Source: Naegleria gruberi (taxonomy: Eukaryota). From it: 64,000 nt of DNA. This document shows, piece by piece, positions 11,421 through 60,801 of the stretch. The stretch lies in NCBI GenBank assembly GCA_000004985.1, contig GG738845.1, one strand, 5' to 3'. A program made the translations under genes and the position numbers. How positions within the stretch are numbered: the stretch's first letter is position 1; each line of letters opens with the position of its first letter. Below the pieces are notes generated by a model. It saw nothing but the letters and a program-made list of their open reading frames with translations, made no database searches and was not told the origin of the DNA.

Positions 11421-11432
11421 ACTAAATTTATT

Positions 11433-12668
11433 TTACAATTTAGACAACCTAGATTCATCACGTTTGTATTTTGATAATTCAGTTCTTCTCTTCCACTTTT
11501 CCAAGTCAGTATAGATGGGTATTCTTGGACCACGAGCATCCAAATCTTGCCATTGATATTGGAAAAAGTCAGCTGTAATTGGAGGATAAATTTCTCTAAA
11601 AACTGAGAATAATAATTCCATTGTCCAACATTTCAGTTTAAATCTTGGAACATGTCTTATTGGTTCTGTAGACTTGATTTTACATCTATCATCTTCAACT
11701 TCCAATGAAAGTAAAAGTAAATCGTCACAGTACATGGCATCCTCATCAGTACAAACAGGTGGTTGAATATATTCGTAATCAACAACACAAAAACCAATAT
11801 TTCTCATAATCTTGTGTCTGTCTTCCGATTTCATGACACCATCATCAACTCCAATAGCATTTGTTTCAGCAAAAAAGTAAAATTCGTCATCTTCTTTTTC
11901 AAGAACCTTCTTCAAATTAGAATCGCTTGCTTTAACGCGAGCATCATCCAAACACAATTCAATATATTGTTGAGCAAATTGAAGTTGACCTTTTTGAGTT
12001 TTGGTTAATTGAAGAATAGTTTCATCACCAACATTCCAATTTCTTACATGCATTAAAGCATTATTAAGTGCTTCCCATCTGTTCGGCTTTCTTTTTGCAT
12101 ATAATTCATATTTGCAATATTCATAAGCTTGATAAACAAGAGTTTTTCCCAAACCATAGTTTCTATATTTTTCACAAACGACAAAGTATGTGAATAAAGC
12201 ACATTGAGACATTTCATAATACTCAAAAACAGAAATGCCTGCAATATTTTCATATCTCATCTCCTTATCGTCCTTTCCATTAACTTCATATGCAACCATA
12301 ATGTGCATAAGTGGAACAAAAACACGATTACCCTTGTGAGTCAAATTGTTAACCCAAACTTCTAAAGGATCTAATTCGGATTCAATAGGAAAATTTACCA
12401 TCATAATTTCATTATAAATTTTAGTAATTAAAGCAAGAGAAAAGTAATCTCTTAGTGAAATAAATCTAAATTTCTTATCCTTTACAGTGTAGAAGAAATC
12501 TGAACCTTTTCCGTCCTCCTTAGACAAGTCTAAATTATATTCCGCAGCATCTGATGATACATTGTTGTCAGCAGTAGCAACACTAGAAGATGTATTGTTT
12601 AATTCCAACAAATTGTTTTGAAAATGGAATTGTCTTTTTAAATGTTTTTTTATCATTTTATGAATCAC
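11433..12668 (-). CDS. GNAT-family N-acetyltransferase-like protein
   Basis: 411-aa ORF. VVCEKYRNYGLGKTLV resembles the GNAT acetyl-CoA binding motif A (R/Q-x-x-G-x-G/A). Convergent with the upstream gene; the two stops are 13 bp apart. Confidence 0.45.
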   Translation of the reverse strand: MIHKMIKKHLKRQFHFQNNLLELNNTSSSVATADNNVSSDAAEYNLDLSKEDGKGSDFFYTVKDKKFRFISLRDYFSLALITKIYNEIMMVNFPIESELDPLEVWVNNLTHKGNRVFVPLMHIMVAYEVNGKDDKEMRYENIAGISVFEYYEMSQCALFTYFVVCEKYRNYGLGKTLVYQAYEYCKYELYAKRKPNRWEALNNALMHVRNWNVGDETILQLTKTQKGQLQFAQQYIELCLDDARVKASDSNLKKVLEKEDDEFYFFAETNAIGVDDGVMKSEDRHKIMRNIGFCVVDYEYIQPPVCTDEDAMYCDDLLLLSLEVEDDRCKIKSTEPIRHVPRFKLKCWTMELLFSVFREIYPPITADFFQYQWQDLDARGPRIPIYTDLEKWKRRTELSKYKRDESRLSKL

Positions 12669-13004
12669 TTTGATATAAAATCCAATGTTGTTTTTTTATG
12701 GATAATAGATAGGATGATGATATTGAGTGTTTGATTGAATGCCGAATGTTGGCCTGTATTGTAGCAGTGTGTGTCAGCCTGTAAAAATAATAATATTTTT
12801 TTCTTTCAAATTTTTCAACACAACGTTTGTCTCGCAGCTGAACTCTTTAACAAAAGCATTTACCAGTCCTTTTATGATCTCATTTCTCCAAAAAGTGGCG
12901 GGTAGATAGTAATTGCATAACGTTTATCTTGGTCTTGTTTGAGTCGCCCTCAATTCTTACCAAAAGATGTTGGTGATTGCTTTTCAACAATAATTTATTG
13001 ATCA

Positions 13005-14015
13005 TCAATAAAGATATTGTCTTCTACGAGATCTTTCCAAGCAAGAAGATGTTTCGTCTCTATAGGTTGGCTTTTTAAGATTTGGATTCAGTTCCATTTC
13101 AAATTGACCCAATTGATTCGAAAATCCCTTGTTTGGTTTGACAAATTTTCTGGCTTGTTTAGTAATGTTATAAGCTTCTTGCAGTGTCAATCCTTCTTCG
13201 GCAATCAAATAGGCTAACACAATAGATGCTGATCTGGAAATACCTTTTTGACAGTGGACGAAAACCTTTTCACCATTCTTCTTACACTCCTTAATGTATT
13301 CAATTGCTTGCGAGAAGTGTTGTTTAATGTCCATGGTTTGATGGTCCACAATTTGAATTTGAAAATCGCCATACTTTTCCAAGACTTGATTTTCATGAGG
13401 TTCAGGTGTAACGTTAACAATTTTCTTAATACCTAACGATTCTAACAACTTTGGAACATAGGCGTGAAGGTAAGCTCCAAGGAAGAGGAAATCTGGTATA
13501 ATTTCATTTGGAAGGAGTGTTGAGTCTCTTTCCATGGTTTCTGGATATTCAAAATCGGAACAAATTGAATTAGAGTACTTTCTGTTCATTTCATCTAATC
13601 CGCCTTCGAGAGATTTCAAACTCTTAATGACAATGTTTCTTGGGAAGAGAGGAATAACTTTTTGGATGAACTGATCGACAACTTGTTGCGATAGTGATGA
13701 TTGGCCATAAATTACAAACATTTGATTCGAGTAGTTGGCCTTTCTGAAGAGACTTTGTTGGAATCCCTCCAAACCTGGATTCTTCTCAAGCAAATCCTCC
13801 CATTCTGTGGTACCTTCATCAATTTGTCTAGTGATTGCTTCGATATCTACATTCGTAGCCGCCAGTAAATGGCTCTTTTCATACAAATCACTAGAGCGAA
13901 GATCTACAAGAGCAAAAGTAAGCTTAGGACTTTGGCAAGGGGCCAATGAAGTCATATCGAGAACTTCATTGTAGAGGAAAGTACAAGTGATGGTTTCGTT
14001 GTGTAAAGAGGACAT
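13005..14015 (-). CDS. dual-specificity protein phosphatase (MKP-like: rhodanese-like N-terminal region plus DSP catalytic domain)
   Basis: Catalytic signature VHCQKGISRSASIVLAYLI fits the HCxxGxxRS P-loop. Start taken at the second in-frame ATG (MSSLHNE); the ORF-track start at 14036 lies in a TATATA stretch. Confidence 0.8.
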   Translation of the reverse strand: MSSLHNETITCTFLYNEVLDMTSLAPCQSPKLTFALVDLRSSDLYEKSHLLAATNVDIEAITRQIDEGTTEWEDLLEKNPGLEGFQQSLFRKANYSNQMFVIYGQSSLSQQVVDQFIQKVIPLFPRNIVIKSLKSLEGGLDEMNRKYSNSICSDFEYPETMERDSTLLPNEIIPDFLFLGAYLHAYVPKLLESLGIKKIVNVTPEPHENQVLEKYGDFQIQIVDHQTMDIKQHFSQAIEYIKECKKNGEKVFVHCQKGISRSASIVLAYLIAEEGLTLQEAYNITKQARKFVKPNKGFSNQLGQFEMELNPNLKKPTYRDETSSCLERSRRRQYLY

Positions 14016-14337
14016 TGTGATGATATATATATACAAAATTGTTTGGTTGTAATACTAAATGGTATCTAGTTGGAGGTGAAGATGTTTCGTACCCGACTAA
14101 GTGTTCTTGTAGTGATTTTTGAAAATAACTGACAAGAAAACGCGTTGCTGGCGTGCGTTGTTGTTAGGAAAGGGGAGTTGGAGATGATATTTTTTTGTCT
14201 CTAAATATGTTTTGTTAGTCGTTTAAATAAAGATGTATAGATAATTTAGTGCCTTTTGAATTTTGAAAATTCAGATAGTTTCAATTTGACGCTAATTGGA
14301 AGCCGTTCAACAGCAAAAAGTGGATGACGAGAATTTA

Positions 14338-17300
14338 TTAAAACTGGTTTGATGTTGTTTGGCTATTAATTTTAGAGGAAACATGATATTTTCTGACGTT
14401 GGCAATGGCGTTGGCTGCACTCAATTGTAGAGCATCATTTTTGGCACTCAACAGTCTAACCAACAAGTTTACGGTATTACAAATTCGCAACGTTTTAGAG
14501 ACAATTTCATTCTCTGAAAGAACACTTAATGCGTATGAAGTGTTTCTGAAAATGTGATGATAGTGGCAATCGATATCAGATGGTGTAACACCATTGGTTG
14601 GTAAATTCTCATAAAGCTCATCAGTTGCTTCTCCATCTTTGTTTGGTGTTGATGAACTTGATTCCAGTATTGACAAACTTGTAAGCGCGTTTGTGAGGTT
14701 AAGGTATGGAGCACAAACCAGGCTGTGACAAACGAAAGGGGAAATTTTTGATTGAGACTTTTTAAAGCTTTTTTCTTGTAATGGTTGTTGTCCGTTTTGT
14801 TGAATTGAGGAATGACCAAAAGTAAAACTAGCACTTTTTGTCAATTGGTTTTCAGTTGTTGATTTGTTTGGGTTTGCAATAGATAAAATTTCAACCATTG
14901 CTGTATTTTCATAATGCTTTCTATGATTAGAATCATAGTGCTTTTGCAGCATTCTTTGGAATTTGATATTCTCAATGAGAGGATCTACTACTCCCTTTTC
15001 AAAGAAAGAAAGGGAATTATGTTGATGTTTTCCCAATTCTGCAATTGCCAAAGCAGCCATTGAACGTAAGTAGAGATTTTCATCGAGTCTCTGGTTGTAA
15101 TTTGGATTATCGTAGACCAACTTTTTCTTCTCCCCACTTTCAGTTTCATACGTACACATGGAAAAATCATTTGTTTTTGGCTTTGTTGCCATCTGAATCA
15201 TTAATTCGTCAATCCACTTTTGAGTATTTTTCAACATGTTTGCGATGTGAGTACAGGCACCTTCCTCAGTGAAAATGGCTCTGTTAATTGGGTTCTGACT
15301 CATTTTAGCAATGGCAAGGCAAATATTGGCTAGAACAAAAATATCTTTAGAGGATTCCAAAACTCTCACCAGAACACCAATTCCACTAACATATGTCTCA
15401 CCAATTCTGGCAGCAATATCAGCATTGTGGATGCAATTTGAAATGGCCATAGCAGCTGCAGCCTGAATTTCTGGTTTTTCATTTCTCAACATTGACCACA
15501 TTGCCTTCATAGCACCCTGTTTCAGCATGCTGTCAAGGACAGAGTTACAGTTACAAATTCTTCCTAGTATATCTAGACAGTGAACAATTAAATCCGTTTT
15601 GGATGACGAAACCAAGAGAGGTGAGATGTAATCCACTATTCCAGATTTGAAAATCAGCAATTTGGTCCAAGGGAGTTTTGCACAATTGGCAATAATTCCA
15701 GCACACCTAAACTTGATTAATTCATCTGATTTTTCTACAGATTTTGTTTTGAGAAGGCTACTGATATAGTTGGAATCAACAATGACTTCCTCAGGTTCAT
15801 GTATTTCGGATTTTCTTCGTCTTCTGGATGGAGAAAGACTTGCAGAAACATTAACTTTTGGAACTGGTGGCGGCTTTACTTTCTTTTTAGGAATGAAATT
15901 AATATCCAGAAAGCCAGTCAGTGAGGGTAATAATCCTAGCTCGAAAATCTTCTCAGAGTTTTCCATAGAGAATGACGCATTGTACATGGCACCAGTAATG
16001 TATTCCAATAAAATTAGAGATCTCTCTGGATCATTTTTCGATTGTTTCTCACACCTCTTTATCCAACTTCCCATAATTTCAAGGATTGTATTGATCTGTT
16101 CTCTGACATATTCTGTTTTTGTTATTGAGAAAAATGAGGCACAACAGTAAATACTTACTCTCAACTGTTAGATTGAATAATAGTCCAGCCATTACAATTA
16201 GTAAATCTATATGGTACGTATTGGATTTAGTCATTATGTTATTAATCGACGCCACCACTAGTAAAAGCTTCTTAATCATGTTTGAGTTTCTCATTTGAGT
16301 TCGAATATTTTCTAAGAGAAATCACTTTTTAGGGGAGAGTATAATCAAACTTACCATTTTCAGCACAGTGCATGAATGACCCGATCACTGGAACTAAAAG
16401 CTTGTAAGGTCCAATAACTGACGAATCAGCCTCATTTCCAAAATCCTTCAAATAGGTGAACAAATGATCGAGATATATATCTAGTATTGAAATTCCAATA
16501 TCACCTCCAATTTTCACATTTAGAATATCCTCTTGATTAGACTCTTCAATGTTGGTTGCAGTGAGAAAAGTGTTGAAACTTACTTCTTTTAGATGCAGTC
16601 CAGATAACTCGTAAAGAATTGTAAATTATAGAAAGTGCTTCAGAAGGAGTTGAATTTTGTAAAGCCTGTGAGGCAACACTAAACGGCCTGGAAATGGCCA
16701 TTGACTTGTTTCTAAAATGTTCAAATATATTTACAGGTGAATTAGATGATCCATCAAAGAACCCTTTACAATTGTAAAGGAATTGGAACATTTTCTTAAT
16801 TCCTTTTGATTTGGTTATTATTTTTCTAACAGCTAATCTCTCACAACAATTAGCAATTACCTCACAAACTAGTTTTTGGAAAGATATTTGTGCATGTTTG
16901 TCTATCTTCACTCTCGATTGTCTGGTTAGTTCGGAGCTACCCATATTCAATGCTCTTAATAGAGAGGGAATGTTTTCAGCAATAGTAAGTTGAATCCTTG
17001 CTATTTTAATTGTTTGTTAACAACATCTCATCAATACAGGTTCAATACATACAATTATTTGATAAGTGAGATAAAATATTGGCTGCTCCCACACGAATTC
17101 TTTCATCTCCATTATATTCGAATAATTTAATAAATGTGGGTATACCTCCACATTCCACAATTGCGTATTGGTTACTCACTAATGAAAAAATGATTAGATT
17201 AATCTAAACTGAAGAACTTACCATCCCCCATATCTAAATCTTGGAAAAATGAAATTGCCAAAATGATATTTCTTTGAGATGTAGTTGAGATTGTGGTGGC

Positions 17301-18534
17301 TGAAGAGGTTGTTGGATGACCCACCTGTTTTGTATCCTTTTCTTTAAAATCACTCTCTGGGGTATTCTGTCTAACAACCTTGACCATCTTATTGATTCTG
17401 GCAACCAATGGTGAGACATCATCTTGACAAGGCAGGTCATTAACAAATGAAATGGTGAAACTTACGATTTTTGGGTAAGGTAACAGCTATCGACTCTTCT
17501 TCATCGCTCGAGTCAGTTGTCTTTGTAAACATGGTGCTTTTCTCAAGCTCCTTTACCTTGCTTTTGGTTAGATTGTCCTTTTTTAAAAATCTTGGGTCAG
17601 TAGATATTCCTTTCTGTTCCAAGAGAAAGGAGTAAGTGAAGATTTCCTTCTTTTTCTTTTGTTTTGGTTTTGATTCCTTTGGTGGCATCATAACTGGAGA
17701 CGGGGTCGAACTGATTCTGCTCAATGCATCAAGATTATTCCCATTATTAAGTGTTTCATATCTATCTGTTGGAATATTCTGGTTAAAAGTTACGGACATT
17801 CTTCGTTTCCTTTCTTCTAAATTTATGTTATCTGACATCGTTAATTCCTTTGGAGTTTCATTGGCTGCAATCAGTCTAGATTGGGATCTGAGTCTGGACA
17901 TTGTTGTGTTTCTAACTAAACTATTTGATCTTTCCCTTCTTCTAAAAGCAATAAAATTTGAAAAGAGGTGGAGTTCGAATTGAGCTATAAAATTATTAAA
18001 TTGAAGTCTTCGGAACAAATCTGATTCTTTAACTTTGGCATTTTCTTGCTCAATCAGATCTTTTATGGTGTCTTCAAATTCGTTAAGATTTTTACTAATA
18101 TCTTCCTCCACTGTCAAGTTTTGATTATTTTTCCCAGAACTCAATAATAATAGTTTCTTATTGTTTTGTAAAAATGATTTCATTTCCTGAAACAATTTAC
18201 CCCACTTTTCTGCGTTTTCTAAATGATTTAAAAAGGAATAAATAGTTCTAAACTCCACTGCAGATGATTTTTTCTCCAACTCTATTCCCATTTGATCTCT
18301 TGACAGACATGTCTCATATCTAATCACTAAATCATTCGGAAGTATCAAATGAAACAACTCCATAAAGGCAGATTTTTGTATCATTCCTTTCTGGTATTGT
18401 TGTTGTTGATTTTGGTAATCCACAAATAAATTATGTAAGGCATTTCCGATATACTCTAACACGTGAATATGCTGTTCATTAGACAAATCCAATGCAGTTA
18501 AATTTTTAAATTGTGCCGAAACAAAATTGCCCAT
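14338..18534 (-). CDS. large armadillo-repeat protein with N-terminal myristoylation-type signal (MGNFVSAQ), 7 exons, about 1310 codons
   Basis: Hand-joined exons on the minus strand are 17466..18534, 17222..17422, 17053..17178, 16584..17000, 16355..16543, 16159..16311 and 14338..16112. All junctions use GTAAGT or GTATGT donors and AG acceptors, with introns of 40-52 nt. Reading frames stay continuous across the ORF-track pieces at 17440..18534, 17199..17408, 16546..16950, 16329..16517 and 14338..16164. ARM-like repeats are present (GGIPTFIKLF, GAMKAMWSMLRNEKPEIQAAAAMAISNCI). Total length is 3930 nt. Confidence 0.65.
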
Positions 18535-18599
18535 CCTTGTCTAAGTTTTTCATTAATCAATTTTTTTTTAAATGAAAAATTGTAGTGTTGGCGGTGGAT

Positions 18600-18611
18600 T
18601 TTGGCGCCAAA
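18600..18611. promoter_or_regulatory. palindromic E2F-type site TTTGGCGCCAAA, about 70 bp upstream of the armadillo-repeat gene start, with an adjacent TTGGCGG half-site
   Basis: Exact 12-bp palindrome in a roughly 30% GC context. An E2F-like TTGGCGG sits 5 bp away. Confidence 0.4.
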
Positions 18612-18663
18612 GTTTTGAAAGATTTACTCAAGTTCTGAATAACATCATTTTATTGCTCTAATC

Positions 18664-20307
18664 TTATATCGATAGAGAGATGATTGTTCTTCCTTTGTAT
18701 TTCTTTCCAGATAAACCTTTTTGGGCGGCTTCTGCAGATTGTGTGTCTGCAAATTTCACTAGAATTCTTCCATTATTTTCTCCATAATTATATGTATTAG
18801 GTTCTGATTGATCGAATGGTATTGTGATTTGTAATACTTTCCCAAAAGTAGAGCACTCATTTTGAAAATCTCTCTTAATTTCTTCAAATCTTGATACGTC
18901 TTCTGGAAGGTTCAAACAGTTTAGGAAAACTACAGTTGAACTGTGTTGAGTTGACTTATTTTCGTGGAGTGGCACCTGCTGTAAGGCAATGTCATATTTT
19001 ACATTGAGATCTAACACTCTTCCAATAGCAGCCTTTTTTGGGTCGGCATCCAATTGCTGTCTATATTGTTGTTGAATTTCTATAACTCTGTCACTCTCTG
19101 TTAATTCAAATTTTGCTTCACATGGGGCTCTCTGAACCAGTAAAAATGTGTTATCAGAAATTTTTTGGAAAATTCTACTAAAGTCCTCTTGAGATATTAA
19201 CCCCATACTTTTCATTTCTTCCAATAATTGTCTTTGGGTTACCTTGTTCATTTCAGCTGTTACTTGATTGGTATTACCATAAAAATCACAGAAAATAAAT
19301 CCATCATTACCATATTGGTTGTCAGTTTCAAATATTCCTTTAGGAACATGAATGGATTTAAGTGCAGAAATATTCTGATTCTTTCTTGCTAAATATCCAC
19401 AAATTTGTTTCAAACTCAATTCTTTAGGCAAATTACCAATAAAGAGCTTATTTGGTGAATCGAGAATAAAACCATTTTTGCTAGGCATAACATCTATAAG
19501 TACATCATTGACAATTTGATTGGAAATAGCACTTCCACTTGATTTTCCTCCATTTGCTCTATTGTAAGTATAGCAAATTGTCACTTGAGGATCTACAAAA
19601 TCCTTTGGTCTATTGATCTTTAGTATAGATCCTCTGAATTGAGTACCATTTAAACAATTAACACAATAGGTTGCCTCTTGTGGTGTTCTAAAATCTACGA
19701 AAGCATAACCCTTGTGCATGGAAATTTGAATGACATTGTCATCAGTAAATTGATATTGTGAATTGTATCCACTGTTTGCATTTGAAGCACCTGTAGACAT
19801 GATCAACAACTCCAATGAATTTGCTGGTTGAGGATTGTATTTATGATTCGTATAGTCCATTCCAGCTTTTCTTAATTGAATAGTAAAGAATTCTATAATA
19901 TCCCTTTCACTTGAATTATCGGGTATACCTCCAACATAAATTTTACGAAGTTGTTTATATTGTGGATCTGTTAAACTAATTCCTGATGAACCTAAAAACA
20001 AGCCAGCACCCGATGTATTAATTTGTTGTGCTGAAACTCCTAGATTATTCTTGTTAACAATATTGGCATTATCATTCCTATTGACAATTCGTTCCATGTT
20101 GTTATTAAAGCTTGGTAACTTGACAATACCATACAATGTACCAGGGATAGCATCCTTCATCAAATCTTGTGGTGTCATATCGAATAGAGATTTTTGTACT
20201 TTTGTATTCAGTTGTATTGATTGCGAAATTTGTTGTTTCATCTTGTTTAAAATCGATTGATTCAAGTGCTCCGATGAAGGAACAGAGGAGTTATTATTTG
20301 ATGACAT
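18664..20307 (-). CDS. RRM-domain RNA-binding protein, U2AF65/PUF60-like architecture (two RRMs plus a C-terminal UHM-like RRM)
   Basis: RNP-type motifs KIYVGGIPDNS and YAFVDFRTPQEA mark RRM1, and KLFIGNLPKE marks RRM2. The C-terminus GRILVKFADTQSAEAAQKGLSGKKYKGRTI resembles a U2AF homology motif. Start taken at the internal ATG (MSSNNNSS); the track start is a non-ATG codon. Confidence 0.65.
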   Translation of the reverse strand: MSSNNNSSVPSSEHLNQSILNKMKQQISQSIQLNTKVQKSLFDMTPQDLMKDAIPGTLYGIVKLPSFNNNMERIVNRNDNANIVNKNNLGVSAQQINTSGAGLFLGSSGISLTDPQYKQLRKIYVGGIPDNSSERDIIEFFTIQLRKAGMDYTNHKYNPQPANSLELLIMSTGASNANSGYNSQYQFTDDNVIQISMHKGYAFVDFRTPQEATYCVNCLNGTQFRGSILKINRPKDFVDPQVTICYTYNRANGGKSSGSAISNQIVNDVLIDVMPSKNGFILDSPNKLFIGNLPKELSLKQICGYLARKNQNISALKSIHVPKGIFETDNQYGNDGFIFCDFYGNTNQVTAEMNKVTQRQLLEEMKSMGLISQEDFSRIFQKISDNTFLLVQRAPCEAKFELTESDRVIEIQQQYRQQLDADPKKAAIGRVLDLNVKYDIALQQVPLHENKSTQHSSTVVFLNCLNLPEDVSRFEEIKRDFQNECSTFGKVLQITIPFDQSEPNTYNYGENNGRILVKFADTQSAEAAQKGLSGKKYKGRTIISLSI

Positions 20308-20461
20308 TTTTTTTAATATTAAATTGATTTTTATTTTCTTTATTATTTGAACCTGAATGTTGTTAGTGGCATCATTAAAACCACATTGGACCAACATAAT
20401 ATCAATAATTAAGCAATGTTAAAATCTCCCGCCGAGATGTATCGTAGTTAACATCAAAAAA

Positions 20462-22018
20462 ATGGATTCACCTGGACGAGCAAATCACAGCACATCAAAC
20501 AATTCAAAAACAACATCATTAAATAACAACAACGGAGGGCCTTTACGAATAAGCGTTCAAAACCAAGGATCTTCAAACAATTTTTCTTCTCCTGTTAGTC
20601 CATCATCGGGAAACCTTGGATCACCTTATAAAATGCAGAAAAAGTTTGATTCATATGAAACAGCCCTTAACAGCAAATTGAGACTGGAAACTCCACCAAC
20701 CGAAGAGGATTTAAAGTCAGAAATACCCAGTCAAAAAAAGTATGATCAAATATTACAAAATGTTGAGAATGTTGTAAAACAACAAACATCGTTTATGAAT
20801 TCGGATTCAATCACTGGCAATGTTGCTACATCAAGGCCAGAAACTAAGTTGAAACAAAAAAAGAAAAAGAAAGGAAGTGCTCTGTATAATCCAACAGGGG
20901 CTAGTGAAACCAGTTATATGGAATTGTATAATAATTTAAGAGAAAAATATCAGACGCTACTTGCTGAAAATCTAAGACAACAAGAAGTATTCAAATTGAG
21001 GCACGATACATTTTTGAAACGAGAGCAACAATCTAAGGAAATAGAAACTGAGCTACATGAGAAAATGAGAGAATCCATGATTGCTAGGGGAGCTGCTGGG
21101 GATCATATGCAACATTTAGTATTAATGAAAGAAAAAATTCAAGAAGGAGTAACTCTAATGAGATTGGAAACTCAAAGACTTTTGGATGGAAAAGAAAAAG
21201 AATTTGGAAGAAAAATAGAGGAAATGATTAGGAGATTCGACAGAGATCTTGCTGATGAAAAGAAAATTAATACGTCAGGAGAACGAGAGTGGAGGGAAAA
21301 GAGTAAATCTTTGAAGAAAGAGTTGGATAATTCAACTGCTCAAGTCATTAAGGTTGACCAACTCAATCATGAGCTGATGAAGGAAAACCAAAAATTAAAA
21401 ATTCAATTTGCAGCCCAAGAAGATGACAGAAACTATCTAGCAAAACATATTGCAAAAACTAAAAGAGACAATGAAAAGCTAAAAGAGGAAACCAAAAGAC
21501 TTCAGGAAGAACTTCAAAGATGCAATAATATAATTAAGGAAATGCAACTTTTAAAACCAATGAGCCCTACAACTCCATCTTTTGCAAATAACAAATCTTC
21601 AATAACCAGTCCTAGAGATAGGGACTCTTCTTCAATCTACACAGTGAATCACTTATCAATTTTGGAACCAGAAGAAAAGGAAAGAAGATTTTTAGAGGCA
21701 AATAACAAACTAAAGAAACTTCTTGATCAAGAAAGGAGAAACATTAGGCAAATTAGAGCTCAAAATATAAGAATATTAGAGGAAAGAACAGAATTAGAAA
21801 TATTCTTAAAGAGTTGTATTGAAGATGTAAAAGAAGAAGTGCGAAGAATGAAGGGAGAAAAGGGAGATAATGAATTCCATAAAAGGGATAGAATGAGAGT
21901 GATAGAGTTACTTCTTTCAAAAGAAAGAGTCATCAAAATACTGTATGAAAGAATGTTTGACAAACCACCAGAAAAAGATTTTGATGTAGAAAGTCAACAC
22001 CAACAGTTTACAGAATAA
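20462..22018 (+). CDS. coiled-coil protein (hypothetical)
   Basis: 518-aa ATG ORF. Long heptad-like E/K/L/Q-rich stretches and a KKKKKG basic patch. The stop is embedded in AATAAA. Confidence 0.55.
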   Translation: MDSPGRANHSTSNNSKTTSLNNNNGGPLRISVQNQGSSNNFSSPVSPSSGNLGSPYKMQKKFDSYETALNSKLRLETPPTEEDLKSEIPSQKKYDQILQNVENVVKQQTSFMNSDSITGNVATSRPETKLKQKKKKKGSALYNPTGASETSYMELYNNLREKYQTLLAENLRQQEVFKLRHDTFLKREQQSKEIETELHEKMRESMIARGAAGDHMQHLVLMKEKIQEGVTLMRLETQRLLDGKEKEFGRKIEEMIRRFDRDLADEKKINTSGEREWREKSKSLKKELDNSTAQVIKVDQLNHELMKENQKLKIQFAAQEDDRNYLAKHIAKTKRDNEKLKEETKRLQEELQRCNNIIKEMQLLKPMSPTTPSFANNKSSITSPRDRDSSSIYTVNHLSILEPEEKERRFLEANNKLKKLLDQERRNIRQIRAQNIRILEERTELEIFLKSCIEDVKEEVRRMKGEKGDNEFHKRDRMRVIELLLSKERVIKILYERMFDKPPEKDFDVESQHQQFTE

Positions 22019-22066
22019 ATTGGAAATATTTATTTTAGGACAACATTTGAAATATATTATTCTATA

Positions 22067-23630
22067 TTATGATATTTCCAAAATTCTAGAAATAAACGCA
22101 CACCATTCATTTCTTTCATTTTCATTCTTAGCAGTAACATTGATTGACTTTTTCCTCTCCTTTCCAATCTCACATACAATCTCAAAAATGGAAGTGTTTT
22201 TAGAACTAATCTTGAGAGTGGCACAAGCTAGACTGAAACACGAAATCATACTCTTTTCGCCTTCATCGGTAAATATACAAATTCCAGAGTTTGAAATTTT
22301 AACCCATTTATCCTTATTATCAAAGTAACTAGTGGTTATCCTTAACCATCCCTTTTTGGTAACATGAGCTCGCTTCTTTCCACCTGTTGCGAAAAAATCA
22401 TCCAAACCCAGCTCGTTAATAATTTTCTTTTGCAAGATTGCATAGCTCATTTCCATAGATGAGGAATCATTTTCAGAATTATTCAAAGAGGTTTGAGAAA
22501 CAAGACCTGTCATACCACTCAAAACTGAAGACAACTCGTCAAAACAATTGGATATCGATGCCGAATCTTTAAGAAATTGAGTCCTAAAGTTTCTCAACTC
22601 TCTATTGCATTCTGTGGCGTCGTTGTGTGCCTTTTTAATCTTGCTGGGTGGTTGTTTTTTCTCAAGCATTTCTTTTAACTTCTTTTCGTTTTCCTGTAAT
22701 TCATCCATATTTTGTTTCAACTTTTAAAGTAAATTGAAATTCAAACACTGTGAAAATACAAACCTCGTTAATTCTAACTCTGGCTTGTACATGAGCCATA
22801 TCTCGTTCTGCTTGATATTTTTCCATCTTTTGTTGTAAATCATTGATTTGTTTCTTTAAAAATTCGACTTCTGTTTTCTCACTTTTTTCTGAATTTTTTC
22901 TCAAAAGATCTGCTTTCTTCTCCTCGTTCCTTTCCTTTTCTTCAAAACTCTGTATAATGGTTTTAAGTTTTGAAATTTCATCTTTCATATCCTCTATTTT
23001 ATATTTGTACTCAATTGACTGTTCTTTGATTTGGGAAAATTTCTCCAATAAGCATTCTTTTTCGTGTGCTTCTTGTTGAAGTCTTTACAGAGTTAGAATA
23101 TTTTTAATCAGTAGGAACTTACTTTTCGATTTCTTGTCCCAATTCTTTACAAGTATACTGTAACTTGTTTCTTTCCTTTCGAGAATCATCAATTATCTTA
23201 TCCAAGTCAATAAATGATAAAATAATAAACTCCATACCTCCTCCAAGTTTTCAATTCTATGTTTCAGTGCATCATTATCCTCCTCTAAATATCCTTTTGC
23301 TTTTTGATATTCATCCTTCTCCGTCCTCTCCAATGCTAACTGATTTTCCAAGTACCTCACTCTTTTCAATAGTTTTTGTCCAAATTCCACTGCTTTTATC
23401 ATTTCCTGTTCTCTCTGGGCATATAATTGTGCCAATGGAATATCACAATATTCATCCTCATTTGTATTACTATCAGATGTTTTTTCCGTCATTGATGAAT
23501 TAATTTCTACTACATTTTCCTGATTTTCTTCAAAGTATTCATCATCCTCAAGATGTCCATTTTCCCTTAGACTACCAATATTTCCAGAAGAGCCAAAACC
23601 CTTCTCTACAAGATTCAAACTTGGTATCAT
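22067..23630 (-). CDS. multi-exon coiled-coil protein with C-terminal PH-like domain
   Basis: Three minus-strand ORF pieces (23193..23630, 22701..23048, 22067..22720) are connected by short GT..AG introns, for example GTTTGT...AAAAG near 22721-22775. The C-terminal piece has a PH-like pattern (KKGWLRITTSYF ... ERNEWCAFISRI). The internal exon arrangement between 23050 and 23240 could not be resolved uniquely. Confidence 0.5.
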
Positions 23631-23891
23631 GATGATGATGATAATATTATATTGTCGAGTAGAGTGGTGTTGTTGGATACGGTCAAATTAAGGCAATTTT
23701 TCGCAGTAGATTCTTGAAAACTCCTGTGTTATATTTGATTGAAAGGGTGATTGTTCAATCTCTATCATGATACCTATTGAAGTTAGTTTTTATTGACAAA
23801 CAAAAACAAATAAAAAGAAATCTCTCTTTGCATCAATGAAGAGAGGGTTTAAAGTTGATTACTTTCCACTAATAAAAACTTGGTGGCAAAG

Positions 23892-23903
23892 TTTGGCGCC
23901 AAA
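23892..23903. promoter_or_regulatory. palindromic E2F-type site TTTGGCGCCAAA, about 30 bp upstream of the CDC27 start codon, in a divergent promoter
   Basis: Exact copy of the same 12-mer. Located between the divergently transcribed coiled-coil/PH gene and CDC27. Confidence 0.45.
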
Positions 23904-23931
23904 ATTTTATTGATTTTTAAAATTAAAAAAA

Positions 23932-26367
23932 ATGGAAACATTCATCAGGCATTTTGTTCATCAATCCTTGTCCTTCCATCTTCATGAAAATGCAATTTTT
24001 CTATGTGAAAGATTGTTTGCGGAAAGCCCATCAATCCCTCACCTGTTATTGATGGCCCAAACATATTTTGAGTCGGGACAATATAGTGTTGCTTATCACT
24101 TGCTAAAATTTCATTCTTCAAAATGGGATGTTCCCTTTAGAACCAACACTTTATCATCGGATCCAGAATTGTCAAAAAGTTTCTTTGATTTTATGGATCC
24201 ACAAGAAAGTATCTTTTATTTATTTTCTTTATGTTGTATTAAATTGGAACACTACAGTGATGCTGAAAGATATTTGAGGAAATGTCACGAACATAATGAA
24301 AATAACGCTATTATTAATTATTGGCTTGGAATAGTCTACAAGTTGACTTGTAGAAAAGAGTTGGCAATTTATCACTTCCATAGAAGTGTCACTCTTTGTC
24401 CAATGTTATGGACTGCCTACGAACAACTAACCCAACTAGGATATGACAAAGTAGAATCGGATGGATTGTTTGATTCCAACAAGGCCACTTCACTTTTTGA
24501 AAGATTTTCTCAAATGTATTCTAATTTAACTGGAAACCAACCAAATAGTCTTACCAATATTCCTTTGATGCCCAATTTTAATTTTACTCCAATGCAAAAC
24601 ACAGGCACTGAATTTAATTCTAATCCACTTATTGATCGTGACACAATTATGGATCAGCCATTTATTCAACTTTCAAATGATCATGCAGGAATTTCATCTA
24701 CCCCAAGCAAATCAAAGTAAGTTTCGAATTTTATTTAATTGTAAGAATATTATGATTTTAGATCAGGAAATGACTTGATAAGCTCCAATATAATCAATAC
24801 ATCCACTGCTAAAACACCAAACATCTCATCAACTAAAAGCAAAACTAGAACTAGTATAGGAAGTGCTTCAAGAAGTAGTTTAGGAAATGATCTACTCAAT
24901 AGCACTTCAACACAACAAACTCCAAATTCATTCTTCTATAGAACTCCTTCTCCTCAACAGTCTCCTTCCTCAATTATTAATCACCCACCAGTGTTAGCTC
25001 AAAAACCAAAACCTCCAAGAAAGAGCCAAACCATCACTGGAGTCACAACAAAGAAAATATCATTCGACTCTGCCGATAAAAAGCTAGGAAGATCAAGTAT
25101 TACAAGCTCGAGTAGCGAGTCAGAAGAATCTCCATTCCTTCTCTATCCAACCCAAACATCTCATTCCTTCTCTAAAAATTACAGAGCATCTCCACAAAGA
25201 CCATACCAAAGAGATTCTCTGCCTAATCAACCAGAATTAATTTTGAGTGCAACAACACCTCTTCCATCAATTCCTTTGGATCCAAGTTCTGTATCATTCC
25301 CTTCCTTCAGCACATGGCAGTCAACATTTTCATTTAATTATAAGAAAGTTACTGTAAATGATGTAAGGGCAATACTCTCCCTCCTTTATGCACATGCCAT
25401 ACCATACAAATTCTTTTCCCAATACAAAGGAAAGGAAGCCATAGAGGCTTTCGAAAGACTTCCTCCAAAACATTATCAAAGTGGGTGGACGTTACAACAT
25501 GTGGGAAGATCTCATTTCGAGATGGCTCAATATGAAGATGCAGAAACTGCATTCGAAAAGATACAAATGAATGAGCCATACAGATTGGAAGGATTGGAAA
25601 TATACAGCACCATATTGTGGCACTTGAAAAAAGATAAGAAGCTCAGTTATCTTGCTCAACATATGAGTGAAATTGATAAAATGGCACCACAAACATTGTG
25701 TGCCATCGGTAACTGTTTCAGTCAACAAAAGGACCATGAGACAGCCTTAAAATTCTTCGAACGAGCTACAAAAGTTAATAATCTTTTCACCTATGCCTAT
25801 ACATTAGCTGGCCATGAAAGAGCTGCAAATGATGATTTGGATGGTGCATTACAATGCTATAGACATGCAATTAGAATAGATGACAGACATTATAATGCAT
25901 GGTATGGTATTGGCACAGTTTACTTTAGACAGGAAAAGTATCAATTGGCTATGTATCATTTCTCCAAAGCCATCAGTATTAATTCTAAGAGTTCAGTACT
26001 CTATTGTTATGCGGGTATGGCAGAAGCTGCCTGTAATCACTTTGAGTCAGCAATTAAAATGTTCACTTGTGCCATCAAGATTCATCCACAAAACCCAATG
26101 CCCAAATTTAAGAAAGCTAATGCCCTCATATCACTCCAAAAGTATAACGAAGCACTGGAAGAATTGAAAGAACTGAAGCATATGGTTCCAAAAGAATCTC
26201 AAATTTACTTTACATGTGGTAAAATTTATGCCTCCAGAAAGCAGAAAGACCTGGCTTTGTATGAGTTTAATATTGCTCTCGATTTAGATGGCTCTAAAGA
26301 AAATCCTCTCATTAAAGAAGCTATTGCAAAGCTCTATGAGATGGATGATGAAAAACTTGAAGAATAA
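23932..26367 (+). CDS. CDC27: anaphase-promoting complex subunit CDC27/APC3 (TPR protein), 2 exons
   Basis: join(23932..24716,24762..26367), 797 codons. Intron GTAAGT...TTTTAG of 45 nt. The C-terminal TPR block (AWYGIGTVYFRQEKYQLAMYHFSKAI ... ALYEFNIALDLD) is typical of CDC27. Confidence 0.8.
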
Positions 26368-26390
26368 AGACTTTTTATATCATTGTCAAA

Positions 26391-29300
26391 CTAATGCACT
26401 TCTTCTGCTGTTTCATCTGAAAATCCTAGTAATTTTTCTGCAAACTCAACTGAGGTAAATCGCTCTTCCAAAGAAGCAACCGTCACAGTGTCTTTGAGTA
26501 ATTTACAGAGGCAATCATTGAGTTCATTTTCACTCATTCTTTCGCCCATCGTTTTAAGTTTTTGGAACAAATCAGTTTTGTTGATGAAACCAGTGATTGG
26601 TTCACTGCCTAGCTTGATAAATGCTTCCTCAATATCCTTTCTCTGAATTCCAAATACTGGTCTGTGATTTACATAAATTTTCACAAATGCATTGAAATCG
26701 ATGAAAATTTCGGGTTCCTTCTTTGATTTTTTCTCAAGGTTGGAAGAACTGTTCTCAGCTGGGTCCCCAACACCCTTAATGACTCTCAATTCATAAATCA
26801 TATTTTGAATTTCCCATTGGGTTGCATAAAATCCTAAAGAACGAACTAGATCTGGCATTTGATTAATTGGTACACTGCCTGTGATTTTTCTTTCACTGGT
26901 AGTAATCTCGCCTTGACTTCTAATCTGGGCATAGTAGAAATATTGTTGAACCTCTTGGAAAAATTCACCTTCTTCTCCTCCTTCAATCAAACTCACATAT
27001 GGTGCAATACCCTCATCAACTTGCCTGTTTCTATCGAGTGGCGTACCAATAATCTTCCATTGGTTGACCATACAATCCGATCCTCCAGCAGTGAACAAGT
27101 ATTTACCATCTGGAGACACAACTGAGGCTGTGATTTCTCCAGCATGAGCAACCAACCCCATATGATGCTTTGGATTGCCATCTAAAGGTAATGCAATTAA
27201 TCCAATTACTTTTTCATGTGTAGAGTAGCACATGTATTTTGGTGGTCGAAGTTCTGGCAACAAGGAAGAGGATTCCTTAACATAATTTGGAACTATCATT
27301 AGTCTATTGAGAGGTCCTCCATATGTTGGGCTGAGAATTGTTCTATTACACCTGGTGTCTCTGTGGCCATAAGGTGTTATGAAGGAAGTTATCTTGTATT
27401 GGTCATTGGCAAATAGAATACCATCGAAATACTTCTTCTCATTTGGATAAGTTTCAATTACGTTTTCATCTCTTGACCATAAAAATGCTGTTGGAACTGC
27501 ATCTTGACTGATTCTGTGGATTGTTTTGACTTTAATGCCTCCTTGAATTGAGCTGCTTTCTAAATCGTACTCAATCAGTCTTCTGTCTTCTGACACCGAC
27601 ATTAATCTAGGAATGTCACCATATGGTTCAATTCCAAACTCCAATCCTGTAATTGCTCTCTTATGAGATTTATATCTACCCAAATACATCCATTCATCCT
27701 TTCCCATACCTTTCTTTTGTGGATTTGGCATGAACTTGAAAATACCAACACAGCTGATTGTTTGATTATCAAAGAATATTGTTAGATAAATGACTTACTA
27801 ATCAGTATCATAAAATGCTAAAAACAAGGAATCGTGAGAAAATTTTAGGGATTGGATACATGCTTTGGATGGTCTATAACCAAAATGAACTATTTCAGTA
27901 AAAAGTACTGCATCGAAAAATTTTACATAACCATTCGAACATCCAACAGCCAAATATTCACCTCTATTGTCAAATGCCAAACTTGAAATATATAATCCTT
28001 TTAGAACCAGAACTTTAAGAACCTCCTTCAGTTGATAATCCCAAATGTGTACATAGCCTGAAAGGCCAGATATTGCAATGTATGGTTTTGTTGGATGCAC
28101 AGCTAATGTTTGAATTGATTCATTTTGACTAGTAACAATAATTCGACCCTTCATACCATCAACATCATAATCGTGAAAGGAAGATGATTTAGCCTTTGCA
28201 ATAAAACCAGACTTGGTTTGAATCATAAAGTCTGGACTGTAGAAATCCCTCTTGATAGGACCATCCGTTGATTCAATAGTGCTCTTTTCCTTTGTTGCTT
28301 TATCAAACGAAATGGAAATGATAGATCCAAGATTAAAGTCCTCAAACCATGCCTCTAATCGCAGTTTGTGATCTAAAAATTTAACAAATCCATCACTGCC
28401 TCCACTTACAATGAAAGGTCCAGAACATGTAATGTAGTTAACACTGTACCCTGTATGAATTCTATCGATCCTTAATAAGAAAATGTTATTAATTACTTAC
28501 TTGACCACTTTCATTGCTTCCTTTTCAATTTCCTTTGCTTCTCTGTCTGGGAAAATCTTCCTCTCCCAAAGAACAATTTCACCATCAGAAGTTCCTGAGG
28601 CTGCCATAGTTGTATTATCTACAAAAGTTGTTTGAATAAATTCACTTGATGCCTGCCTAAAGTCGCTTTTTGCTGTGCTAGGACAAAAATATTCTAAGGA
28701 ATTGTTGTCTTCATGATTTTCCCAAAACACAACAGATTTTGGACCGCTAGTCAAAAAAATTGTTGGATTGGCAAAATGGCAAGTTAGAGAAGTCTGAAGC
28801 TCATTATTAGGGACCAAGGAGGAAACTTTGGCACCTTCTAAATCTTCAGTCCATTCCCAAACTGAAACCTGTTGCTCCCCTTCCTCATTAGGTCTACTAA
28901 CGCTGTAAATTAACATAGAGTCGCAAGAAATGTCCACTGACTCAATTCCAACCGGATGAGGGTCAAAAATTGTTTTGACTGGAATACCCTTATAACTATC
29001 CCAAATGACAATCATATTTTCCTTTCCACTATCTGCAGTTACAATCCATTTCTTGTCCCTACTGACTGCACAGCATGTTATCATGTTTGTCTATTTTTAA
29101 TTGAATAATAATTTTACATTCATTTTCAATCAATTCGTATTCCTTACAAAAACTTACATGACCTTGAAGTAATATTTGTTCCTTTGACTCGTATCTGAAA
29201 ATTATTCCAACATTTCCTGCAACATAAAATACCTCCTTTCTGTAATCGTCACATAAATTGTGCATGCCTCCCAAAATGTCCTTATTCATTCCAAAAATCC

Positions 29301-29769
29301 ATTTCAAATCGAGAGTGGAATCCTCATCTACATTCTCTGATTGATCATAAAAGCTATCCTCTCCTTCATTGTCCTCATTATTTCTTCGAATATCTCGATT
29401 ATCATATTCATCTCCAGCATCTGAATGTTCATCCATCTCAACCTTTGATTCATCATTTTCATTTACTTCGTGTTCCTGAACGTGGTGATGTAGATTTTCT
29501 TCATCATTTTCCTCACCGTCATTTTCTGGATCTTCCTCTTCATGAACCTCCTGATTATCCTCCTCTTCTCCATATTGTTGATTTTCTTCATCATCAGCCT
29601 CTTCTCCTTCTTGGTTCTCATCTTCCTCAATCAAAGGAGTTCCATGATCCCTATTTTCATTCTCATTTTCCTCTGTCATTTCCTCCTCTGCGGAATTGTC
29701 CACCATCAAAGTTTCTTCTGGATCTTCGTTGGCTGAAATATGTGTATCCTCATCTGTTGTTGGTTCCAT
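26391..29769 (-). CDS. WD40-repeat protein with Glu/Asp/Asn-rich N-terminus and EF-hand-like C-terminal region (CFAP251/WDR66-like architecture), 4 exons
   Basis: join(complement 29158..29769, 28501..29090, 27799..28443, 26391..27753), 1070 codons. Donors are GTAAGT, with introns of 67, 57 and 45 nt. Frames are continuous across ORF-track pieces 29059..29823, 28497..29084, 27798..28226 and 26391..27731. Several WD-like repeats are present, and the C-terminus has a paired helix-loop-helix pattern. Confidence 0.7.
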
Positions 29770-29788
29770 TTTTTTTAAATTGTAGTCT

Positions 29789-29800
29789 ACAACCAACTTT
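29789..29800. promoter_or_regulatory. E2F-type site TTTGGCGCCACA, about 25 bp upstream of the WD40/EF-hand gene start codon (minus strand)
   Basis: Same GGCGCC core with TTT flank. One-base deviation from the palindrome. Confidence 0.35.
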
Positions 29801-30232
29801 TGGCGCCACAATCCAAAAAACACCTTACCCGATAAAAATTCTCTCCAATTTTAAAGTAATTATTGTCAGATGAACTCCTTGTCATCATTATAACAAGTTA
29901 CAATTAATGATAAGTTGAGGTTGAATTTAGGAAGGAACATTTAGTAACATCACCATCGATGAAGGTTTCTATTGGAGATTGGTACGTTAGAGAGGAGTTT
30001 CTCAGTCAACGACAAGACAATTTAAAAAAATATCATCAAACCGCTACTACCTCTGCGAGTTTCATAGTGAAAAATCGTCTCAGGATTGGCATTGATTATT
30101 TTCTTCTTCATCATTTAACCCATCCCTCCTCCTTTCGAAATAGTAAATTGGTCGTCATTGAATCGTCGCCTATTATTATATTCCTCTATTCAACTGTAAA
30201 AAATCTAAAATTAAATTAACCACTATTATAAA

Positions 30233-35762: not shown

Positions 35763-36651
35763 ATGGGGGAAGAGCTACCACCACGTAAAATATTCTTCCT
35801 CTCTCAATTTGCATTTGGGTCAGCTTGTTGTTTTGTGATTTGTTTTATAGTATGGTTGGGAGTGTTTTTTGGAAGCAATTTCTATGGTAAGTTAATATGG
35901 TATGATTGGAATTTTAGTATGAAATTTTGTACTGTAGAAATTAGAGTTAAGGAAACTTTCCTTCCGACAACTTGTAAGGTTAGTAGTGTCTATTAAGACC
36001 CTCTTAAAATCCTGAATCAACAAAAAGGTAATTAAAAGAGAAGTTCTCTCATACAAACACTGTGAAACTAGTTGCTTTGGTTGTAACGAGTGTGAATATT
36101 CTAAATTGCCTTCTTGCAATAATGCTGATTCTTATTTAACCTATAACTCATCTGCCTATTGTTGTGGAGGTTACATATGTTGCAGTGAGTGTGATTGTGA
36201 TGAAAAAGATCGCCACTGTCGATGCTGTCACAGTATCAGTCATCAAAAATGTAGAATGGATTGTTTTGAATATTGGAGGGGAGAAATTACAATGGAATAT
36301 TTGACCGTGGAAAACAAGACAATTGGTTCACTAATGGTTAAGGATTGCAGAAACGAATTTTCTTGCATTGACATGTATTTTGATTTGTGGAAAGTGAATC
36401 AGACTGGACAATGTTTCTATAATCCTATGAGACCATCAGAGTTTGCCACAAAGAATACCTATAACATGGATGCTTTTAGTGCCATGTATGTTTTTGCAAG
36501 CTTTATAATATTATACTGTTTGCTTTGTGTTCCAAGTTGTACTATCTTTGCATATCTTAAAAGAAATAAGAGTAACGGAGATCAATTAACGAATATTCAT
36601 CCTCCAATAACTATTGTTTCAACAGAACCAAATGTGGATTACAATGTCTGA
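35763..36651 (+). CDS. cysteine-rich membrane protein (hypothetical), 3 exons
   Basis: Proposed join(35763..35886,35938..35978,36028..36651), with canonical GTAAGT/GTTAGT donors, AG acceptors and a continuous frame. Dense Cys clusters (CCGGYICCSECDCDEKDRHCRCCH) and two hydrophobic segments. No family recognised. Confidence 0.4.
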
Positions 36652-37649
36652 TAATGTGTGTCTTTTGTTGCCTGTTTGAATTGGCCGTAATTAAATTTTA
36701 AGGTAATAGAAACTAGAGTATGATGAGTAATACCTTTATGAATATATATTGTATTTCCTTTAGAATCTAGTAATTTGGTTACCTTGGTAAGTCAAGTGTT
36801 GTATATTTTCACTTTATTAGTTGTAAATGACTTTGAGAATAAATATATATATATAAACAGTTACAATTTAATTTGATTGCAATAATCTAAATGAAAAGCT
36901 ATTAAAAGTACTTTCTTTTTATTAGAGATCCCATGTTTCCCATTTAATATCGAGTAGTAAAAATATGTAAATTAAAAAATGGAAAAAATGTTGAGTTTTG
37001 GTATTTTTTTAAAAAATGTTTTTTTCAAAAAAATTTCGATAAAAACTAGAAATTTATTAGTATTTCAATGAAAAATACGAATTTTCATACATGCGTTGGT
37101 GGGATATGTTTGTCATATTAGATATTTAATAAAAATAAAATAAAAATTTTCGCATGCATTTATATATATATATAAATACATCCGAAAAAATTTTTGTTGA
37201 AAGTTGGTTTATTAGATGGTTAAATTGGTTTATCTGAAAAATCATTTAAAAGTGATTTAGATATAAAGATAATGAAATTAATTGAAAATTAAGAAGCTAA
37301 AATAAATTTTCAAAAATTTATCGATTTGAAATTTAGAAAAGCTTAACAAAGTAATATAAAAAACCATTAATTTTTAAAAATCTTCTAAAGTTGGTATTAT
37401 CATTATGAAGATTATTGATTGGAAGTAATAATCTTTATGGTAAATCCAAAGAAAATGAATTCAAAGAAAGAACAAACTTTGTAAAAATATTACAAAAACA
37501 CTGTTATTAGAAGTAGTAAAAGTAGAGTGATAGTTGTTTATTAAAACAAAGAAAAACTCTTACAACAAGAAATAGACAACTAGATTCATGGAGGTTGATG
37601 GAGTGATAAGTTTAAAAATAAATGGTCCAACTAATATCTAACATCAATT

Positions 37650-37652
<3 letters not shown>

Positions 37653-37680
<28 letters not shown>

Positions 37681-37681
37681 T
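37653..37681. repeat. (AT)n dinucleotide microsatellite, about 14 units, inside a 2.8 kb gene-free AT-rich island
   Basis: Perfect ATATAT... run. Shorter (TA)5-7 runs at about 36845 and 37163. Confidence 0.9.
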
Positions 37682-46632: not shown

Positions 46633-46817
46633 TTTTTTGTTCTTTGTTCCCGCTTAATTTCCTTATTAATTTTAATATTATAAAAATATTAATAATTATT
46701 TAATCTCGTATTTTGTAAATATTAAAAAAATGAATGAAAACAGAACCTTTCTATCCACCGTGATGAACATTGTATGTACATTACCAACAAGAATTATGGT
46801 TAACACAACCATTTCAG

Positions 46818-56975: not shown

Positions 56976-57324
56976 AATTAATTCTCTCTGCAGACAATTA
57001 TTTAAATTCTTATCAGAAAAAAATTATTGAAAAATTAAAAAAAATTTAAACGTTTATTAATCGTATGAACCCGACGGGTTCGTCTTGATGATATTACGAA
57101 TATTAAATAATAAATTCTTTCTTGTTGGGATTGCTTTGTTCATTTCTTGTAACTCTGTGGACACAAATACTTGGCTTGAACACCCTATGCTGGAACCCCG
57201 GGTAGTATAGGGTACGGTGACTTAACCCGACGTAAGTATTGCGGCAACACACTGTGGTCTCAGGGTCAACAGTGTAGTTACTGGGTGGTACGACATTTTT
57301 TTTGAGACGGAAAAATTAAAAAAA

Positions 57325-60728: not shown

Positions 60729-60801
60729 CGCCCACCGTGGGGGTCGAACCCACGACCACAAGGTTAAGAGCCTTGCGCTCTACCGACTGAGCTAGACGGG
60801 C
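60729..60801 (-). tRNA. tRNA-Lys (anticodon CUU)
   Basis: The reverse complement reads GCCCGTCTAGCTCAGTCGGTAGAGCGCAAGGCTCTTAACCTTGTGGTCGTGGGTTCGACCCCCACGGTGGGCG. This is a canonical cloverleaf with D-loop AGTCGGTAGA, anticodon loop CTCTTAA and T-loop GGTTCGA, and it is near-identical to eukaryotic cytosolic tRNA-Lys(CUU). Confidence 0.9.

Follow-up and report, generated by a model that had tools for sequence, protein, structure and literature searches.

Does a GC-rich palindrome found just upstream of several start codons in the AT-rich genome of Naegleria gruberi represent a binding site for E2F-family transcription factors, and does it mark a cell-cycle regulon? This question was raised by a preliminary description of a 64-kb stretch of DNA (scaffold_1:88001-152000, hereafter the window), which reported three copies of a 12-bp E2F-type element, each 25 to 90 bp upstream of a start codon. 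All three copies are present. The perfect 12-bp palindrome TTTGGCGCCAAA is found at positions 18600-18611 (site 1) and 23892-23903 (site 2), and a copy with one mismatch, TTTGGCGCCACA, at 29799-29810 (site 3); the latter had been placed at 29789, a 10-base slip. The occurrence of three E2F-type palindromes is thus confirmed and is far from chance. Judging from their sequence, these are probably promoter-proximal sites for E2F-family proteins (E2F-DP and/or the DEL/E2F7-like factor); the proposed cell-cycle regulon, as discussed below, is unsupported.

The window has a G+C content of 33%, and GGCGCC, which the preliminary description had singled out as very rare here yet contained in every copy, is indeed encountered only three times (0.28 expected in 64 kb), all of them in these sites. 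Three of the six GCGC tetramers in the window are likewise located inside the E2F-like sites. With up to one mismatch allowed, there are 5 matches to the 12-mer versus 0.12 expected, and none of 100 dinucleotide-preserving shuffles, in which CpG depletion is already allowed for, reaches 5. The remaining two matches, TTTGGCACCAAA at 47495-47506 and TTTGGCTCCAAA at 58101-58112, have lost the CG core and lie within coding open reading frames (ORFs); they may be decayed sites or may be codon driven, both being possible, and they add two to the count that is set against the expected total of 0.12. Across the window, the observed/expected ratio of CpG is 0.43, and TG and CA are in excess (1.27 and 1.26, respectively), a pattern typically left behind when methylated cytosines are deaminated. 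N. gruberi has genes for DNA methyltransferase and Tet-like proteins, and binding by E2F is sensitive to methylation.

Measured from the motif edge, site 1 is 65 bases upstream of the ATG of an ARM-repeat gene (18534, minus strand), site 2 is 28 bases upstream of the ATG of CDC27/APC3 (23932, plus strand), and site 3 is 29 bases upstream of the ATG of CFAP251 (29769, minus strand), all within the range originally given. Site 1 is also 52 bases downstream of the stop codon of an RRM gene, and the region of site 3 is shared with a plus-strand Rab gene located further downstream. A related element, TCTCCCGCC (GGCGGGAGA on the minus strand; 20425-20433), occupies the center of a 64-bp divergent promoter, 28 bases from the ATG of a coiled-coil gene (20462, plus strand) and 30 bases from that of the RRM gene (20397, minus strand). 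Its presence upstream of the coiled-coil gene had been correctly noted, at a distance given as about 35 bp. The spacing is therefore tight, with 28, 28, and 29 bases to the ATG at the coiled-coil gene, CDC27, and CFAP251. The GGTGG shared by two copies and the TTGGCGG beside the first, both mentioned in the preliminary description, are there as well; the latter (18588-18594, plus strand) is a half-site-like element 5 bases from site 1 and falls in a 29-nucleotide (nt) segment with 79% identity to the sequence flanking site 2. Two more sequences may belong to this set. One is GCGGGAA at 46647-46653 on the minus strand, which reads TTCCCGC in the plus orientation; it precedes by 14 bases an ATG at 46632, also on the minus strand, that opens the first exon of a gene whose function is not known. 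The other, a weak assignment, is TGGCGGG at 12896-12902 (plus strand), which is intergenic, between the stop codon of a dual-specificity phosphatase gene (13005) and the next minus-strand gene, ∼240 bases from the first ATG. With the possible member at 46647 included, the window sites are found 14 to 65 bases upstream of ATGs, and the motif precedes roughly 4 to 6 of the ∼40 promoters in the window.

The restriction of this motif to promoters was evaluated in a pooled set that consisted of the window and five heterolobosean loci, with an intergenic share of 17.5%. Over about 140 kb, TTTSSCGC is found seven times in intergenic regions and never in genes (P = 5e-6), and the same is true of GGCGGG, with six intergenic and no genic occurrences (P = 3e-5). 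The shorter TTSSCGC is found 11 times in intergenic regions and 3 times in genes (P = 1e-6). An unbiased comparison of intergenic and genic 6-mers in three Naegleria sequences also places GGCGGG and TGGCGC among the top intergenic words that are not AT rich.

The syntenic locus of Naegleria fowleri (22.6 kb, with eleven intergenic regions) does not contain a single GGCGCC. It encodes, however, four copies of GGCGGG, all four of them intergenic and one in each of the intergenic regions orthologous to four motif-bearing regions of the window. The length-weighted probability of finding the four copies in four orthologous regions out of eleven is 0.0025, and the joint probability with all copies being intergenic is 6e-7. 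The N. fowleri site is aaaTGGCGGGGAAAg in the ARM-repeat promoter, about 75 bp upstream of the ATG, and aaaaTGGCGGGtttt in the CFAP251 promoter, 32 bases upstream of the orthologous ATG; GGCGGG is found 34 bases upstream of the ATG of the coiled-coil orthologue and about 155 bp upstream of CDC27. At CFAP251, the coiled-coil gene, and the ARM-repeat gene, the distance to the ATG is thus conserved along with the core. The versions of the site in this species are aaaTGGCGGGGaaa, aaaaTGGCGGGtttt, ttGGCGGGtga, and taGGCGGGtaa, with AAATGGCGGGT and TGGCGGGGAAA as variants. In MAFFT alignments, the orthologous intergenic regions are essentially unalignable, except for the CDC27 pair formed by the window and one contig of a third, Naegleria-like species; conservation was therefore judged by the presence of the motif in each orthologous region rather than by aligned columns, and the retained cores stand out because the surrounding intergenic DNA has diverged beyond alignment. 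That third species, represented by contigs from two metagenomes (L003 and L004; 80% protein identity), has kept TTTTTGGCGCCA upstream of CDC27, where TTTTTGGCGCCATTTT, 54 bases upstream of the gene, is the sole well-aligned block in the promoter.

Similar sequences are found further afield. In Naegleria lovaniensis, TTGGCGCG precedes a gene without known function by about 85 bp. Two genes on a contig from a more distant heterolobosean are preceded by GGCGCCAAA and TTCCCGCGAAAA, and Willaertia magna has TTTGCCGC 45 bases upstream of an MGMT-like DNA-repair gene (L009, position 15211). Such a distribution suggests that about one in ten promoters in this group makes use of the motif. On the same W. 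magna contig (position 10047), TTTGGCGC is found 46 bases inside the annotated start of the E2F gene. The predicted Willaertia E2F protein exceeds its Naegleria orthologues in length by about 100 to 160 residues. Its translation may therefore begin at an ATG further downstream, which would place TTTGGCGC in the promoter of the E2F gene itself.

Overlapping inverted E2F sites are known, for example, from the DHFR promoter, and the 12-mer had been described as a textbook sequence of this kind. The comparison bears this out: TTTSSCGC is matched on both strands of sites 1 and 2 and on one strand of site 3, and the weaker members (20428, 12896, and 46647) match only the GGCGGG or GCGGGAA core. Moreover, one of the human E2F-family motifs obtained by high-throughput systematic evolution of ligands by exponential enrichment (HT-SELEX) has TTTGGCGCCAAA as its listed consensus, next to the E2F1 motif ATTGGCGCCAAA (PMC5449588), and the core of the 12-mer fits the symmetric [C/G]GCGC[G/C] core with T/A flanks of E2F/DP sites (PMC3734150). 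The cognate proteins, which the preliminary description had proposed to look for, are encoded in the genome: NgruE2F, NgruDP, the two-domain, E2F7-like NgruDEL, and NgruRB are all included in the source data of PMC4862756. E2F orthologues with the PF02319 and PF16421 domains are found in N. gruberi, N. lovaniensis, N. fowleri, Willaertia, and Acrasis. The DNA-binding domain of NgruE2F matches the E2F4 chain of the E2F4-DP2-DNA crystal structure (1CF7) with an E value of 7e-25, its 24-residue recognition stretch is the same as in human E2F4 except for one extra E2F4 residue (R before QKRR), and NgruDP carries RRRVYDALNVLMALNIISK, so that N. gruberi has both a cognate E2F and a DP with the RRxYD DNA-recognition motif. 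The argument that the DNA was not of fungal origin also holds, the organism being N. gruberi. These sequence comparisons suggest that the most likely identity of the element is an ordinary promoter site of the E2F family, not previously described in this lineage; an E2F site in an organism with E2F is expected and not surprising.

In the proposed mechanism, an E2F-family factor would read the symmetric GGCGCC (or GGCGGG) core via the conserved RRxYD recognition helices, with the flanking T and A runs likely boosting the affinity. Because the sites are located ∼15 to 65 bases upstream of the ATG in tiny intergenic spacers, binding would take place at or next to the transcription start, and the bound factor could either activate the adjacent gene or, with the Rb pocket protein, repress it. 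That the binder is E2F and no other factor, whether it activates or represses, and any connection with the cell cycle are inferences.

The closest precedent for the Naegleria element is the E2F-like promoter motif of Cryptosporidium parvum. No upstream motifs are more abundant than DTTGSCGCCH and TTTGGCGGGAAV in that organism, which encodes E2F and DP (Oberstaller et al. 2013, PMC3734150). Both are compact, AT-rich protist genomes with very short intergenic regions, E2F and DP genes, and both core variants, GGCGCC and GGCGGG; in both, the sites, which are predicted ones in C. parvum as well (PMC3734150), precede functionally mixed genes without a single expression pattern. In contrast to Naegleria, Cryptosporidium lacks Rb, belongs to an unrelated lineage (Alveolata versus Heterolobosea), and has the motif ahead of 2,379 genes, a large share, rather than roughly 4 to 6 of ∼40 promoters. 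As for the E2F/DP sites of animals and plants, the likeness consists of a 12-bp sequence identical to the human SELEX consensus, a position near the gene start, and the presence of E2F, DP, DEL/E2F7-like, and Rb proteins with a conserved recognition helix. In animals and plants, however, the regulon is defined by genes for DNA replication and G1/S, to which the Naegleria genes that carry the sites do not belong, and Naegleria APC3 is essentially flat in its expression.

This brings us to the regulon, which the preliminary description had derived from the motif, with CDC27 as a plausible target, and which finds no support here: CDC27/APC3 is the sole cell-cycle gene among the motif-bearing genes and is not flagged as upregulated in mitosis, and there are no canonical S-phase genes in the 64-kb window. 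A gene set made of APC3, a flagellar gene, and two genes of unknown function would fit a widespread element of the Cryptosporidium type better than a narrow G1/S regulon. Several observations also weigh against assigning the sites to E2F. In the published N. gruberi transcriptome sequencing data (Kennard et al.), APC3 is marked as FALSE both for up_in_mitosis and for up_in_differentiation, with log2 changes within about 1. The targets are not classic E2F targets, as CFAP251 belongs to the flagellum and no function is known for the other two genes. The N. fowleri versions keep only (A/T)TGGCGGG, the A-run preferred by E2F after GGCGGG being mostly gone, and two of them are AAATGGCGG, which also resembles a YY1/YY2-type site. 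No site is found in the 1.3-kb region upstream of the N. lovaniensis E2F gene or in the CDC27 promoter of Acrasis, literature searches found no report of an E2F cis-element or of E2F/DP binding for Naegleria, and the sample is small (∼40 promoters in the window and ∼180 kb in all). A candidate for a conserved CDC27 site in Acrasis, TTTTGGCGCCAC (L008:9218), was rejected: it is 780 bp upstream of the true ATG, in an apparent unannotated coding region on the minus strand.

The least probable of the other explanations, that the sites have no function and arose by chance or as copies of a dispersed repeat, is effectively refuted. Site 1 does resemble site 2 over 29 nt (79% identity) and, in inverted orientation, site 3 over 17 nt (94% identity), but the similarity ends at the motif and its immediate flanks. 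A dispersed repeat family was rejected on these grounds, as no longer repeat surrounds the sites; besides, the shuffles never reach the observed count, all the sites are in promoters, and they are kept at orthologous promoters in two other species. Being promoter restricted, conserved at orthologous promoters, and not a repeat, the element appears to be functional and is a genuine conserved promoter motif under selection. A serious rival is that such a motif, with the core TGGCGSS, is read by a different Naegleria factor, for example, a YY1-type C2H2 zinc-finger protein or an uncharacterized one, and that its match to E2F is coincidental. This is possible, at perhaps the level of a minority view: only (A/T)TGGCG(G/C)(G/C) is conserved between the species, the two AAATGGCGG sites of N. 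fowleri resemble the YY1/YY2 core CCGCCATT, and the associated genes are atypical of E2F targets. However, the N. gruberi sites and the one in the third species are without the CCAT core needed by YY1-type proteins and match E2F at all 12 positions, GGCGCC and GGCGGG are two standard E2F cores that coexist as E2F-like motifs in Cryptosporidium, and N. gruberi has a cognate E2F/DP whose recognition helix is unchanged. Three narrower assignments were rejected outright. An NFI-like TTGGC/GCCAA site would need a half-site spacing of 5, whereas the spacing here is 0, and NFI is, to our knowledge, restricted to animals; a 12-nt perfect palindrome leaves no loop for an RNA hairpin. The tandem CDE/CHR element of animal G2/M promoters consists of GGCGG, a 4-nt spacer, and TTTGAA. 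A TTTGAA does follow site 1 after 5 nt, and a TTCAAA follows the CDC27 site of the third species after 3 nt, but the hexamer is missing at sites 2 and 3 and in N. fowleri, the orientation of site 1 to its gene is wrong, and TTTGAA/TTCAAA, which occurs once every 295 bp in this AT-rich DNA and is not conserved, is taken to be there by chance.

A different role for E2F itself has also been considered, namely, that the sites belong to amoeba-to-flagellate differentiation, with its basal-body and flagellar genes, rather than to G1/S, by analogy with E2F4/5 and Multicilin in vertebrate multiciliated cells. E2F sites ∼30 bases upstream of the ATG would then drive part of the program for the de novo formation of basal bodies and flagella, or keep it repressed until the cells differentiate, with CFAP251 and possibly the ARM-repeat and coiled-coil genes as targets. 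CFAP251 is an axonemal protein (E = 1.6e-95 to a solved chain), among solved structures, the ARM gene product is matched best by the ARM region of ODAD2/ARMC4 (E = 1.5e-16), and the transcription factors that control Naegleria cilia genes are unknown, with RFX, FOXJ1, and XAP5 being absent (PMC12183034). On the other hand, only one gene is clearly flagellar, the ARM match is at the repeat level only, and APC3, which is not induced in differentiation, carries the best site too, which makes this version an unlikely one. If true, it would make E2F/DP/DEL a candidate for the long-sought regulator of cilia genes where RFX, FOXJ1, and XAP5 are absent, and it would suggest that the involvement of E2F4/5 in multiciliogenesis in vertebrates goes back to an ancient connection of E2F with the biogenesis of centrioles and cilia.

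The preferred assignment, to promoter-proximal E2F-family sites, has implications of its own. Promoter architecture and transcription factor targets are almost unstudied in Heterolobosea, and a defined 12-bp site that can be paired with candidate proteins (E2F, DP, DEL, and Rb) and with published time courses of mitosis and differentiation offers a testable handle. If the sites are bound by E2F, they would provide direct cis-element evidence for the E2F/Rb network in a lineage very distant from animals and plants, which would support the dating of this network to the last eukaryotic common ancestor (PMC4862756).

The preliminary description had labeled the genes beside the sites correctly. The window has a compact gene layout with short introns, and three of its intronless ORFs are identical to N. 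gruberi NAEGRDRAFT_45205, NAEGRDRAFT_45201, and NAEGRDRAFT_61522. The 364-residue ORF downstream of site 1 (17440-18534, minus strand) is the first exon of a longer ARM-repeat gene, as its N. fowleri orthologue has 1,381 residues with ARM matches; an ORF further downstream in the window also matches ARM. The coiled-coil gene (NAEGRDRAFT_45205; 20462-22018, plus strand) is without Pfam or PDB matches. CDC27/APC3 (23932-26367, plus strand) has two exons, 23932-24720 and about 24775-26367, with the Pfam domains ANAPC3 and TPR; it corresponds to the curated model AKG0049 (scaffold_1:111932-114367), which has the same length and structure, and its ORF is 79% identical to N. fowleri FDP41_007193. 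CFAP251 (26391-29769, minus strand) is a multiexon gene for a protein of the flagellar axoneme, with WD40 beta-propellers and an EF-hand-like C terminus, and it is the C-terminal ORF that matches the solved CFAP251 chains.

Part of the public annotation of this region, window positions 11421-20461 (scaffold_1:99421-108461), looks incomplete or wrong. The consecutive accession numbers EFC50490 (9720-11420) and EFC50491 (20462-22018) bracket ∼9 kb that clearly holds the phosphatase, ARM-repeat, and RRM genes, and the JGI model jgi_61107 (scaffold_1:105949-108426) spans the first ARM exon, site 1, and the RRM gene as a single exon. A start codon context, TTTAAAAAAAATGGAA, with 7 to 8 A residues right before the ATG, is nearly identical at CDC27 (23920-23940), CFAP251 (29761-29781), and the RRM gene (20305-20323), which suggests that this genome may use it as a strong context for start sites or translation initiation.

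The 6-mer comparison also revealed a Myb-type core, AACGGT/ACCGTT, as the most intergenic-enriched of the words that are not AT rich in the three Naegleria sequences (8 intergenic and 1 genic occurrences; P = 1e-5). It is found in the window at 32715, 35712, 37769, 38278, and 50895 and in the N. fowleri locus (L001) at 8183, 8272, and 19572 and is possibly a second promoter element. Two of these positions, 37769 and 38278, are in the 36000-39700 region, which has a G+C content of 26 to 27% and few long ORFs and contains the element aaacggt[ga]ctactaagtt twice. A GC-richer intergenic stretch at 57180-57300 (ccccgggtagtatagggtacggtgacttaacccgacg...), 84 bases upstream of the gene at 57325, contains a TTGCCGC match; it resembles a possible small RNA gene but has no match in Rfam, for which a tRNA gene at 60729-60801 (minus strand) is the sole match in the window.

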